NCBI GenBank assembly: GCA_964016885.1
Contig: CAXHJY010001603.1
Location: forward strand, 1 to 64,000
Length of the DNA: 64,000 bases
Direction: 5' to 3'
Origin: Eledone cirrhosa
Taxonomy: Eukaryota
Every line of letters begins with the position of its first letter. Within the stretch, counting starts at the first letter, position 1. Of the stretch, positions 2,442 to 44,189 are shown in pieces. The notes beneath the pieces are model-generated. The model was given only the letters and a program-made list of their open reading frames with translations. It was not told the DNA's origin and ran no database searches. A program made the position numbers and the translations under genes.

Positions 2442-4475
2442 AATAGACAAGAATCAAAGCTATGTTAGAACATTTAATTGCTGACAATTGTTTCTTCTAA
2501 GCCTAGGCTTGGAGTCTTCGGAGCATTATTAGCAATGTTTATACATATAATCAGCCTCCTATTTCGCTAAAGAATCATACAGATACGCATTGTGGACAAC
2601 AGTGTGGGATGGATGCGACATATATTATGTTAAATTGTACAATAAGATTCAAAATTAAAATTACAAGCTTTTGGTGGGGCACGTGAGGCAGATAATATAA
2701 GAGCGTCTAGTAAATAAATGAAATTAAAGAGACAGTACGTGCGTTAGTCATATAAAGCAATTGAACAAGCAAAGGTATCAAGCATATATGAGTGCTGGGT
2801 GTTGCGTACAAAATACAAGCACTTATAGCATGTGTGTTAATATATGTGTTAATATATTAAGGTGGTTTCAATGCGGAGATATCTTCTGTGTAGATCAAAT
2901 ATGCGCGTGTGCAGAATAAGAAAGATCCAGGTTTCACATCCATTACATTTGTCACGGTATATATGTATTGAGTGTTTGTTATAGTAATGGCTTGTGATGT
3001 AAAGTAACTTAGTGTTAGTTAGTCCGTGCCGTATATTACGTTTGTAGAGCTGGGAGATTCTTCTACTGTTTATTATCCGGAAGTGGAAATGTAAATAAGG
3101 GGAGCTAATGCGTAAGGGGAGGTAACTAGCTCATTGTAATAATATTTAAACTCATTGTTCTAAGGGATTTTATATAGTGTTATAATTGAGGGCCTAATAT
3201 AGAAACTATATATTTATATTTAATTCAATTATAAACCCAGTCCACTCTCTCCTAATACGTTAAGGTATCATTAGAAAGTTGCCTATCAAATATTATAAGG
3301 TGCCATAATTGAGTTTCTCATACAAAGTGTTATATATTTATATTAATTTAATCTTAGATAGTCTACCCTCCCAAAATATATCAAAGGTTTTATTAGATTG
3401 CTGTCTACCCTGTATATGGTGAGCTATGTAATACCGTATAGTTGTTTGCATGATAAAATAGATATATCTCTAGGGTAAATAAATAAACACATCCCTTATA
3501 TACAATGTTATTAATGTTAATCCATACATTTAATTATAGATGTATATATAATTCATTGTTCCATATTGCATTTAAGTTAGATAAATCCCTTATGCTCCTA
3601 CATTAATCCTATATATACAATGATATTAATTTTTATATTTAATTGAAAATGTATATATAATTCATTGTCACGTTTAATATTTAAAGTTTATCTAAATTAT
3701 ATTATATTTCTATCACTATATAATTATAAGTAATCTAATTTTACTATATTAAGAGTATAGAGTTATAGGTCGGCTGGATTGTGTAGAGGAAAGGGTGGAT
3801 CAAAGAGTGTGGTGCAGTGGTGCAATGCAAGCCCTACAGGTGAAGTGCTAATGGAGGTGTTGAGTTCAAAACTGACATTGTTATATACTAGGTTTAAAGC
3901 TTTGAAAAGAGTGTCGGAAGCAGTGCTGGCACGATGCAAACACTCCGATTTTTTTTTATTAAGGAGGTTAAGGTTCGAAAAGATTATTGTATGGGTCTCT
4001 AGAAGACAGAGGTTATAAAATGTATTAGGTGGTTTATACGATGCTGCCCTACCTACTACTTCCCATTGAAGTGTATATGATCTATTCCTATTTTTCAGAT
4101 AGTGTATGTATCTAGATAATGAAGTTGAGTTGGCTAGATTGTGCTTTCTGAAAAAGTGAAGGTGTGAGTTGTATCTCGTCTTGAAGCAGTTCGAAGTGGA
4201 GCCTATATAGGTTTTAAAAGAGTTGATAGTGTTGACCGTGCATGAGTAAATGATGTCCTTAAAGGGCAGGTTCTATTAGATCTACAGTTACATTTATTTT
4301 GGGTTAAATCTTGCCGGTTATTATGCTGCGTAGAAGTCTGGTTGCTAGGTATTGCATTAGTTATAGTTATAGTTTTTGAAGGTTTTATGTAACAGTTTCC
4401 TTGTTCTTTCTATATTAATTTTTTTATAGTCTATAAGGAGTAGTGCATCATCGCGGTATAAACCACCGTTGAGGT
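2442..4475 (-). mobile_element. Internally deleted, 5'-truncated Penelope-like element
   Basis: Manual rc translation gives NGGLYRDDALL (RT, ~4440-4470) and IIYSCTVNTINSFKTYIGSTSNCFKTRYNSH (GIY-YIG, ~4165-4255), then a long AT-rich 3' UTR ending in an HHR at 2479-2525. Confidence 0.8.
2479..2525 (-). ncRNA. Hammerhead motif, CCGAAGA (U4C) core
   Basis: rc: tgct-CCGAAGA-ctccaagcctaggcttagaa-GAAAC-aatt-GTC-agca. Confidence 0.7.
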
Positions 4476-4696
4476 ATGGTATATACGCATATATATGGTA
4501 TATACGCATGTATATGTATACATCGTATTTGTCAGACTACGAGTGTCAAGGTATGTATCTCCCCATGGACTTGACACCACCAACACATCCACCACACCAC
4601 CAAAAACGCCATTACCATAAACAACAACACCACACCCACATCATACACAATAATCAGCCACAAATATACACCAATCTGTCTACCGACAATCCATTA

Positions 4697-4880
4697 CCCC
4701 CACACCACAGCCCATCCCAGTCAGCGACCGTCACCACCATTTTATCATCACATCCACCCCCACATACACTACAGGCGAAGGTCAACCCCCCCCCCCCCCC
4801 ACACCACAGCTCATCCCAGCCAGCGACCGTCACCAGCATCTTATCATCACACCCACCCCCACATACACTACAGGCGAATA
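4697..4880 (+). repeat. Two-copy direct repeat, period ~99 bp
   Basis: acaccacagc.catcccag.cagcgaccgtcacca... begins at 4702 and again at 4801. Confidence 0.85.
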
Positions 4881-4986
4881 CATCCCTATGATCTATTCCA
4901 CCAACCAAAACAATTCATATTGACCAACACATGAACTTCTGACTTTATCATATAGCATGTATTCATTTTCTTATAGCATTTTAAAG

Positions 4987-41334: not shown

Positions 41335-43775
41335 ATCAGGAAAGAAGGTTGACATGGTTTGCTATACAAAAAAGGTTTTTAATCTCATAGCTGACAATTG
41401 TTTCTCTGAACTGGTAGGTCTAGAGATCGCTATTCGCTTATTTTCGCGTTACTCGATCGCCAATACAAAATTATAACCAGTCAGATCTTCGGAGCATGCG
41501 AGAATGAAGAAAATACACAGGCAAGAAAAGAATATACAGGCTACTATATGAAGTAGTAATGGCATTCAATTAGAACAATAACAACAATTACAACAATGCT
41601 ATTAATAAATTATTTGAGGAGACCCTGACATTACTTAGGTGGGGGGTATAATGTATCTAACGTTACGGCGTGTAAAACTAGCTGTCATGAGGCAGAAGTA
41701 AGAGTTTGGCATGTACAGAGTATCGAAGTGTGTATCAATTTTAAATTATAAAGATAAGCCAGTGTTTACAGTCTTTCTCTTCATCTTCAATAGTATACAT
41801 GAGTGGGACAACACTGTCAAAGCTAAATAGTTGTTGAGTTAATACAGAGGTTAACGAAGTAATATACGCATATATTTACACACACACACACACACACACA
41901 CACACACACACACACACACACACACACACACACACACACACACACACACACACACACACACACACATACACACACACACACACACACACACACATACACC
42001 CCCCCACACACGCACACACCCACCCACACACACATACACACACACACACACACACACATATATATATATATATATATATATATATATATATATATATATA
42101 TATATATATATATATATATATATATATATATACACATGCATGTGTACATAGACACATACATACACATCAATATACACTCGTGCAAAAATATACATACATG
42201 CAAAGAGATAAGCGTGCTAATTGTAATTATTGCAAAAGGAAGGTAAAGTTACATTGTAGTAGTGATTTGAGAAAAACTAGGATTTAGGATCAAATGATGG
42301 CAGCAGCTGAGAAGTGGTATAGACTTGTGAAGGATATAGTATACTTAATGAATATATTTCTGCGGGTAGTAGGTATCCTAATTTAAAGCTATGTTGTGTT
42401 GGTTCGATTCACGGAGGTTTGAATCTTATGAATTTAGTGGCAATTCTATGTCTGCAGAAGATAGATCTTTCTAACTTATTGTTAAGTAGCCTTTTTACAT
42501 TTTTGAGGATATACAATAGCTCAAGATCACATAGCCCGCAGTGGGACATCCCTGTACTATAGGTTTTAGCAGCCGACAACTTCGACCAGTTGATACTGTA
42601 GTTAGTGCTACTGTCCTTCAGTTCCCATATTTTTTTGGCGAGGGTTGTGGAACCCATAAGTGCACGGTTTTTCATTGAGTGTCTGTGCACATACCATCTT
42701 TTTTTAAAAGAACCCGCGGTGGATCCTATGTAATTCCAGGTGGAGTTACCCGAGATGACCGTGTACATGTACACTAGGCTCTAATCGAGACATCTGTTCG
42801 CCAATGGGCACCTATCTGGTAGATGACAGTTACAGTTTGAGGCGCTATTTTGTGCAGCTTTTACATTCCTGTTTAGTACTCTGTTATAAGTGGGTTGTGA
42901 TATATGCCCAATGGGGTTTTGCTGCTGCGCGTTTGTATGCGCTTGTGGTTGTGATGTTGTGATGTGTTTGTGCTTATAATTTGGTGCTACGTTATGTATA
43001 GGTGCAGTTGATTTACTAGAGATATTTCTGTGGTTGATCTTGCGTATGTGTGATTCTATGTTAGCTGCTGTTGAGAATGAGAGTTTTATAGTAGATCTAT
43101 TGAGTATTTTGTGATATCTATGCGAGATAGGGAAGTGTTTATCTATTAGTTTAAAGAATGTAGAGGAGAGTCTAGTTTTTATAGAGGAGTTGAATATTGG
43201 GTTGAACCATAGGTATTTTCTTTGTCTGTTTCTTCTATTGTTTCTTGGGTTTACGTTATTAGTGTTTTGGCCGTTTACTCCAGGTGTTACGTGTCTAACC
43301 CTATGTCTAGTCAAGTTATTTCTATTATTATGTGAGCGGTTGGAGTAGTAATTACTAGGATTGTTTACGTTGTCCTTATTCACTATATACTGCAGTTTAT
43401 CTTTATGACCGGCCCTACGTAATGCTGCATTATAATAGTCAGCATGCTCGTTAAAGATTTCTAGGTTTGAGGATAAGCGGGATATTCGGAGGGATATACT
43501 ACGTGCTATGGATCTAATTATGGATTTGGGGTGATTTGAGTTGTAACTAATGTAGGCAAGATTTTCATTATTTTTGTGGAAAGGTTCTATTAATCCAGTA
43601 TTTAGATTTAGAGTCACATCTAGAAAATTTACCTTCTTATGGTTTAGTTCGTAGGTAATACTTAGGCCTAGTTTTTTGAAGAATATTCTAATATTTTTTC
43701 TTAGTCTTTCCATGCTCTGGTTGTTTAGGTTCCTAGCTATAAGTAACGTGTCGTCCCTATAAATTCCTCTTTCCT
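41335..43775 (-). mobile_element. 5'-truncated PLE with 3' HHR (41389-41496, CCGAAGA, ~85-nt stem II)
   Basis: GIYRDDT (~43745-43768), VNFLDVTLNL, SNHP, WFNP, CNC..CPLANRCL, in-frame stop, VYMYTV..YIGST; rc gct-CCGAAGA-tctgactggt...accagttcaga-GAAAC-aatt-GTC-agc. Confidence 0.9.
42409..43768 (-). pseudogene. PLE RT C-terminus/GIY-YIG with in-frame TAG at 42781-42783
   Basis: ORFs 42781-43713 and 42409-42774 are in the same frame. Confidence 0.85.
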
Positions 43776-44131
43776 GATTTATTATTACTCCAAGTGTTTA
43801 CAACATAGGAATTACGGCATACCCGCAGCATCACTATGAAAACGCCTTGTTGAGTCAAACCAAGCCAAGCGTTAATATCATCCACTACCTGGAATACCAT
43901 AACTGGACTTTACCTAAGAGGACTGCATTTAACTATTATTTGTTACTCCGTATATATATATATATATATATATATATATATATATGTGTGTGTGTGTGTG
44001 TGTATGTGTGTGTCTTTTCTGTTGTTCATTGGACTTTGCCTGCTATTTCTGGTTCATATTCTCTGTTTTTCATTTGCTTGTTTCCTTATAGTTTACCATC
44101 ATTCCGTTGGTATACATCTATTACGCAATTT

Positions 44132-44189
44132 ACACCCGAAGATGTCACCGGGTTCTTACGCAACCTGGCCACTGAAATGTGCACTGTGT
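44132..44189 (+). ncRNA. Decayed hammerhead motif, CCGAAGA core
   Basis: acac-CCGAAGA-tgtcaccgggtt..aacctggccact-GAAA-tgtgc-ACT-gtgt; resembles 21216-21268. Confidence 0.55.

Follow-up and report, generated by a model that had tools for sequence, protein, structure and literature searches.

Can the hammerhead ribozymes (HHRs) of an animal retroelement spread with a cytosine in place of the uridine at core position 4? U4 closes the uridine turn of the core through hydrogen bonds that C cannot fully copy. The question is raised by a 64,000-nt stretch of Eledone cirrhosa DNA (contig CAXHJY010001603.1, positions 1 to 64,000; here called the window), in which seven HHR motifs have C4, two of them behind open reading frame (ORF) remnants of Penelope-like elements (PLEs). 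The explanation that we favor, and hold to be reasonably probable, is that C4 is common to the copies of two multi-copy families, which likely form the ends of Hydra-clade PLEs, and that the intact motifs pair as dimers and are likely slow self-cutters.

The window is animal-type repeat DNA (G+C content, 38%; CpG observed/expected ratio, 0.87) with numerous (TA)n runs and broken reverse transcriptase (RT), GIY-YIG, and long terminal repeat (LTR)-retrotransposon frames. Type I HHR motifs are dense in it, and most of them have the canonical U4. The initial annotation of the window had argued that a change to C4 creates a CpG, opposite to the usual decay by methylation; the direction is right, but at this CpG ratio the argument is weak, and it was set aside.

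Seven hammerhead motifs with C at core position 4

The seven C4 motifs exist where they had been annotated. They are named here by the coordinate of C3, the start of the core, whereas the initial annotation numbered each one by its low-coordinate end.

2480..2524, minus strand: group A hammerhead (2521), CCGAAGA, C4 at 2520, 20-nt stem II region, palindromic stem III, GUC site at 2483, 41 nt before a microsatellite
4987..5071, plus strand: group B hammerhead (4990), CCGTCGA, C4 at 4991, A6U change, 60-nt branched stem II, palindromic stem III, GUC site at 5068
6593..6637, minus strand: group A hammerhead, best-preserved copy (6634), CCGATGA, C4 at 6633, GUA site at 6596
26301..26345, minus strand: group A hammerhead, decayed (26342), CCGATGA, C4 at 26341, G12U change, weak stem II, compensatory stem I pair
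40343..40410, plus strand: group B copy (40347), CCGACGA, C4 at 40348, 25-nt deletion of GAAA, stem III, and cleavage site
41390..41495, minus strand: group A-like hammerhead (41492), CCGAAGA, C4 at 41491, 81-nt stem II with a 10-bp base, GUC site at 41393
44132..44189, plus strand: group C hammerhead-like motif, single copy here (44136), CCGAAGA, C4 at 44137, 4-bp stem I, 31-nt stem II, noncanonical C at 16.1

All seven have C at core position 4, and none has the U of the CUGA uridine turn that belongs to a type I HHR. The geometry had been described as otherwise HHR-like, which is fully true of three motifs (2521, 6634, and 41492); apart from position 4, these have three stems, C3 to A9, G12-A13-A14, A15.1-U16.1, and an NUH site. 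Their stem I is of 3 Watson-Crick base pairs, stem II and GAAA are present, stem III is a perfect 8-nt palindrome, and the site is GUC or GUA. The other four (4990, 26342, 44136, and 40347) carry a second lesion, and the 40347 copy is incapable of cleavage as it stands, because its deletion takes the 3' half of the core. Stems I and III of 41492 are the same as those of 2521. A short palindromic stem III is a trait of dimer-type PLE hammerheads, and perfect 8-nt palindromes are found in 2521, 6634, 41492, and 4990; computed duplex energies range from -6.4 to -13.3 kcal/mol in the four copies with an undamaged stem III and a canonical site.

Could such motifs arise by chance? A first descriptor with position 4 left free was run on the window and on 60 shuffles, and no C4 match was found in the shuffles. 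A second descriptor, also free at position 4, was tuned after the matches were seen and fails on 26342, 44136, and 40347; it matches three C4 motifs in the window perfectly apart from C4, and a fourth with one further core change, whereas 100 block-wise dinucleotide shuffles gave no perfect match of any kind and one C4 match with one mismatch in total. The remaining CCGANGA heptamers (8486, 32652/33070, 36093, 48994, and others) were rejected, being without stems or antisense or coding coincidences.

The expectation that CUGANGA-based searches miss these motifs was borne out. The published PLE descriptor fixes cuganga, and the Rfam hammerhead families (clan CL00010) gave nothing in the window at the gathering threshold, the one hammerhead match, to HH9 at 39584-39640, being weak (22.1 bits versus 52); other Rfam output was microsatellite and hairpin noise. 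None of the seven C4 motifs was reported by Rfam, and nearly all U4 copies were missed too. A model trained on 42 U4 Hydra hammerheads lists two of the seven (2521 and 6634), with E values of 1.7 and 2.9. Tallies of animal hammerheads that rely on a descriptor fixed to CUGANGA omit whole families, and a new scan that leaves position 4 free would be worthwhile for elements classed as having no hammerhead.

C4 is shared by homologous copies of groups A and B

Is C4 an inherited state or the private decay of each copy? The three short group A copies (2521, 6634, and 26342) align without gaps, with 39 to 41 of 56 positions identical (70 to 73%), have 3' tails in common, and all have C4; two of the three pairs pass a shuffle test of this similarity. 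Counting 41492, C4 is present in four of four group A copies. The short copies also keep C3, G5, A6, G8, A9, and the GUH site. The initial annotation had named a lack of stem covariation as evidence against a family variant; instead, 4 of 13 pairs are changed on both sides among these three copies, spread over all three helices (0 to 1 in slid controls), and 87% of pairing cells can pair, versus 19 to 36% for the slid controls. This covariation is suggestive only, since 26 of 500 shuffles of the three sequences attain the same score.

Group B gives a second case. The 4990 and 40347 motifs are homologous, and both have C4. To these we added four sequencing runs labeled as one species (two contig sets of one sample and two restriction site-associated DNA [RAD] read sets of another study), compared with positions 2445-5205 at 80% likeness; the depth used is a summed word depth, which is not a copy number. 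Depth over the group B motif (4956-5141) is 134,000 to 212,000, the highest peak, versus 3,600 to 4,900 just upstream, and over the 2521 motif (2445-2537) it is 18,700 to 27,600, versus 540 to 1,140 in the neighboring bin. These rises indicate that the hammerheads are kept while their flanks diverge. At 2521 the depth forms an island at 2465-2527, and loose read ends at 2465 and 2527 fall on the two borders of the HHR, which indicates a retained motif between varying flanks.

The majority sequence before 5009 reads CCGACGA in 139 and 134 contigs (agreement, 0.67 to 0.68; median length, 54 and 52 letters), as does that before 5020 in 212 reads of the other study (agreement, 0.76, with a median of only 9 letters). 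The group B majority core thus has C4 with A6 intact and retains C3, G5, A6, G8, and A9, and loose ends behind 5070 belong to molecules whose match runs on across GAAA, stem III, and the cleavage site. For 2521, RAD molecules ending at 2486, inside stem III (134 of 196 and 164 of 196), and loose ends behind 2527 (148 and 177 reads) indicate that position 4 is covered in the run data. The 40 near-fixed differences listed include neither 2520 G>A nor 4991 C>T, although both sites are deeply covered; with 495 further differences beyond these, the group A run data exclude only a near-fixed U4.

These observations bear on the possibility that each copy mutated from U4 to C by itself after insertion, the family masters being U4. 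Private changes at position 4 do occur: the 52803 motif (minus strand) has G4, whereas its relatives at 55252, 18917, and 1822 have U4, so that one of four copies is mutated, which serves as an internal control; the run data also do not reveal what fraction of group A reads have U4. Independent mutation is nevertheless very improbable in view of C4 in four of four group A and two of two group B copies, the CCGACGA majorities, and the lack of U4 at both deeply covered sites among the differences listed. Hence, the sequence comparisons support C4 as inherited in groups A and B rather than as private decay, and the family-level core variant proposed by the initial annotation stands: C4 is common to diverged homologues with compensatory stem changes, and CCGACGA is the majority in the runs.

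A C4 family could also be an off state, if C-to-U RNA editing or deamination yielded a canonical U4 ribozyme and made cleavage conditional. One deamination would restore the canonical core. We regard this as the least credible of the explanations weighed here, since reverse transcription of edited RNA would return U4 to new copies, yet the group B majority is C4, and since editing leaves unexplained the motifs with A4 described below. A-to-I editing as the source of C4 was rejected by reasoning, because it gives A-to-G on the copied strand and not U-to-C.

Did C4 arise once? A common origin of the long stem II of 41492 and group B is plausible by eye and failed a shuffle test; the 5' flanks of 41492 and group B gave a P value of 0.007, among many pairs compared. 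Because the long stem II failed its test, a single origin of C4 across the three groups is at most a possibility.

Probable host elements of the C4 hammerheads

The initial annotation had placed two C4 motifs at the 3' end of YRDD-type PLEs, and this agrees with their positions: YRDD/GIY-YIG ORF remnants lie on the same strand as 41492 and 2521, which are found about 920 nt and about 1,240 nt, respectively, downstream of them. These YRDD elements belong to the Hydra clade as already described, and the window has three ORFs of this type.

3763..4480, minus strand: Hydra-type ORF remnant, internally deleted and frameshifted, YRDD at 4458, GIY-YIG domain, upstream of the 2521 hammerhead
42409..43797, minus strand: Hydra-type ORF, 5'-truncated, one internal stop, YRDD, CxCX5C linker, GIY-YIG, upstream of the 41492 hammerhead
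29550..31627, plus strand: third Hydra-type ORF, one frameshift, RWR, DKT, YRDD, CxCX5C, no C4 hammerhead behind it

Across these three ORFs all the marks of Hydra-clade PLEs are found, namely, an RWK-type motif, DKT, CxCX5C, YRDD (as in the published members), and GIY-YIG at the C terminus without CCHH; the 29550 ORF contributes RWR, DKT, YRDD, and CxCX5C, the 43797 ORF YRDD, CxCX5C, and GIY-YIG, and the 4480 ORF YRDD and a piece of the endonuclease. The 29550 ORF has 88 homologues with 34 to 43% identity, and by eye its RT motif B has the form GA.DSA..DLIG as in an octopus Hydra element, unlike the other published ones compared. An endonuclease-domain tree places the three window ORFs together (92/84); it is given little weight because of its long branches and lack of starred support.

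The putative tie between hammerhead and ORF is one of strand and position for 2521 and 41492 and of homology for 6634 and 26342. Five C4 motifs (2521, 41492, 26342, 4990, and 44136) lie 41 to 192 nt before a dinucleotide run, and such runs are frequent in the window. Where the window's U4 HHRs have an ORF nearby, it belongs to other PLE types (YLDD at 12267 and YVDD at 54186). The C4 copies are dispersed singles and the sole tandem array has U4, so they lack the head-to-tail monomers of 170 to 400 nt of non-LTR retrozymes. At 4480-4490, the minus-strand Hydra ORF remnant meets the inverted group B 3' end of a different family, a possible template switch or nested insertion.

Position 4 in related elements, metagenomes, and phages

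How general is C4? Papers are cited from here on for the parts that our literature search covered. In the Hydra rows of File S2 of PMC8557442, where the descriptor is CUGANGA, 26 of 26 hammerheads have U4, and six C4 9-mers are absent from the Hydra consensus file. We then examined 79 Hydra metagenome loci, taken from the best 80 of 359 matches, which were ranked by a non-window protein and are partly redundant. A motif was found in 66 of them (60 by a strict scan and 6 by a relaxed one), always with U4, and in 13 there was none; among 42 distinct Hydra motifs, U4 is invariant and covariation is strong. Thus, C4 is not general in Hydra elements. One Hydra-element hammerhead (L020, 1938, plus strand) has a U3-A8 core.

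An independent retroelement case, a single sequence, is a clean C4 hammerhead with a 6-bp stem I and a GUA site on a metagenome contig (L018, 2660-2706, plus strand); it lies behind a neighboring non-Hydra PLE with YIDD and a CX4CxxC linker, as read by eye. In phages, one 16-base pattern was scanned in IMG/VR and gave about 280 C4, 2,000 U4, 340 A4, and 190 G4 stretches. Full type I or III folds were found in 21 of 120 sampled C4 stretches, 84 of 121 U4, 1 of 120 A4, and 0 of 120 G4, from which we estimate totals of about 50 C4 and 1,400 U4, making C4 roughly 3% of the hammerheads with the tested pattern. The Hydra profile found no relative among the viral contigs, and the group A pattern had 0 matches there.

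Are the C4 hammerheads working ribozymes?

In the explanation that we favor, C4 would have arisen in founder (master) elements and spread by retrotransposition. C may be the one position-4 substitution that the uridine turn tolerates fairly well, weakening the turn without abolishing it. Stem III would close poorly within one molecule and is predicted to form an 8-bp duplex between two, so that two transcripts or two tandem repeats, paired through the 8-nt palindrome, would assemble the cores and cut after GUC or GUA; this cleavage could trim or release the element RNA, probably helped by the element's protein. By analogy with the U4C viroid-like RNAs that cleave in vitro and with the complete C4 folds of phages, the intact C4 motifs are predicted to be slower but likely working cutters, and the slower cut would cost these elements little. 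In the one PLE examined biochemically, HHR cleavage was seen only with the element's protein and was dispensable for insertion in vitro (PMC11167929), which would allow a slower variant to reach high copy number.

Several points weigh against this explanation. U4C in a viroid considerably lowers activity in vitro, with infection still possible (PMC3088659), and in a mutational scan single mutants of the CUGA turn were of low activity (PMC9901934); the working U4C examples are type III motifs, and the palindromic motifs of the window are type I. No contig in the four runs spans ORF to hammerhead, and groups B and C have no ORF beside them in the window. To these are added the second lesions in four of the seven motifs, the shuffles that attain the covariation score, the limited reach of the group A run data, and a neighboring family with A4, which has two homologous copies with a 5-bp stem I, a 3-bp stem II, a hairpin stem III, and a CUU site:

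32474..32524, plus strand: A4 hammerhead-like motif (32479, CAGAAGA), 26 nt before (TA)n, about 850 nt downstream of the 29550 ORF
6321..6371, minus strand: second A4 copy (6366), in a region 96.5% identical to 32290-32548, 270 nt behind the 6634 hammerhead

A4 in this family hints at a loss of constraint, which it fits better than a tuned tolerance.

What if C4 is inherited and the ribozymes are effectively dead? The fold would then be kept as a binding or priming structure for the reverse transcriptase, and position 4 would drift, giving C4 in groups A to C and A4 in their neighbor. Both homologous copies have A4, and the one at 32479 sits at the end of an element, downstream of the third Hydra ORF; A4 is nearly absent from phage hammerheads. 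PLE hammerhead catalytic mutants were unimpaired in insertion in vitro, with no RNA ends seen at the hammerhead site (PMC11167929), Naiad elements thrive without canonical hammerheads (PMC8557442), and the further core lesions point the same way. Lesions in single genomic copies mainly report age, however, because they accumulated after insertion. The group B majority keeps its core residues and its reads fit through GAAA and the GUC site, and the three short group A copies keep theirs together with the GUH site; a structural role would not obviously need these. We consider dead ribozymes a serious but doubtful alternative to slow cutters.

A bolder possibility, unlikely in our estimate, is that in the Hydra-clade retroelements of this animal the uridine turn has loosened as a lineage trait, with C4 fixed in several very high-copy families, A4 in another, the rest of the core kept, and the element's protein replacing the role of U4. 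If true, the lineage would offer hammerheads rescued by protein as a series made by nature, and animals would have a large class of ribozymes that CUGANGA descriptors fail to see. High-copy families with a weakened core stand here next to U4 families in the same genome, so that natural sequences can serve to test if the spread of PLEs requires cleavage by their hammerheads.

Other hammerheads and repeats in the window

Two hammerheads at 39591 (plus) and 39381 (minus) form an inverted pair; their core is U3-A8, their stem III is a 12-nt palindrome, and they are related to a 310-nt repeat. Eleven identical copies of this repeat, each with a U4 hammerhead, occupy 14161-17553 as two opposite-direction arrays that abut at 15450. 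They lie upstream of a YLDD Penelope-like ORF that is almost intact (13641-11206, minus strand); the arrays look very young or like an assembly effect. A 600-nt inverted repeat (32555-33163) has a U4 hammerhead with a 50-nt stem II in each arm (33036, plus; 32686, minus). The window further contains two broken Ty3/gypsy-type LTR retrotransposon pol regions with protease, RT, RNase H, and integrase (35207-38520, minus, and 47457-49350, plus) and a long satellite at 55600-64000, with units of about 20 nt and higher-order spacing.

Comparison with known hammerheads

U4C was offered as a possibly uncatalogued variant, but outside animals it is already known as a natural, still-cleaving change. It turns up again in CtaHVd-LR1 (PMC9608096) and among zeta and betaviroid-like RNAs, for which in vitro cleavage was seen with the two strands of ZV1 and likewise with those of one betaviroid-like RNA (bioRxiv 10.64898/2026.09.16.752053), and a CYGANGA descriptor has already been used (PMC13481778). 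PMC3376415, PMC6155905, PMC13282606, and PMC7229834 yielded nothing about U4C, and no C4 family in animal retroelements was found in the literature searched; Lunse et al. (PMC5785218) and supplement file 1 of PMC4209133 lie outside this coverage and may bear on novelty. U4C is thus a core change already known to be tolerated and, it appears, so far unreported as a family state of animal PLE hammerheads.

The natural and recurrent core change of peach latent mosaic viroid, CtaHVd-LR1, zeta virus ZV1, and betaviroid-like RNAs is identical to that of the window motifs. Those cases are RNA replicons, with type III motifs where stated, in which U4C is found on one of two strands or as a minority variant; in contrast, C4 in the window belongs to multi-copy DNA retroelement families with type I, dimer-type motifs. 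The C4 hammerheads of phages have complete type I and III folds and, unlike the window motifs, a stable monomeric stem III and a prokaryotic context.

The closest likeness is to the Hydra-clade PLE hammerheads (Craig et al. 2021, PMC8557442), which are also type I, near the 3' end behind an ORF with YRDD RT and GIY-YIG; their stem III is short and self-complementary, stem II frequently has an N.N left unpaired at its base, and insertion is (TA)n-adjacent. These have U4, whereas the window has C4 (and A4), a longer 3' region of 850 to 1,240 nt, and a stem II of up to 81 nt. The minimal hammerheads with palindromic stem III of metazoan PLEs (Cervera and de la Pena 2014, PMC4209133) have the same dimer-type architecture. 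Low activity has been described for such palindromic dimer-type HHRs, as has a family variant with U3-A8 (PMC4209133; PMC6765202), and no CCGA core appears in text parts 1-2 of 4 and supplement file 2 of PMC4209133. Family-fixed core variants are therefore known in these elements, as U3-A8 in Schistosoma, and U3-A8 is also present in the window at 39591 and 39381. U3-A8 is a compensated pair swap, whereas the U4C of the window is uncompensated and lies outside the cuganga descriptor.

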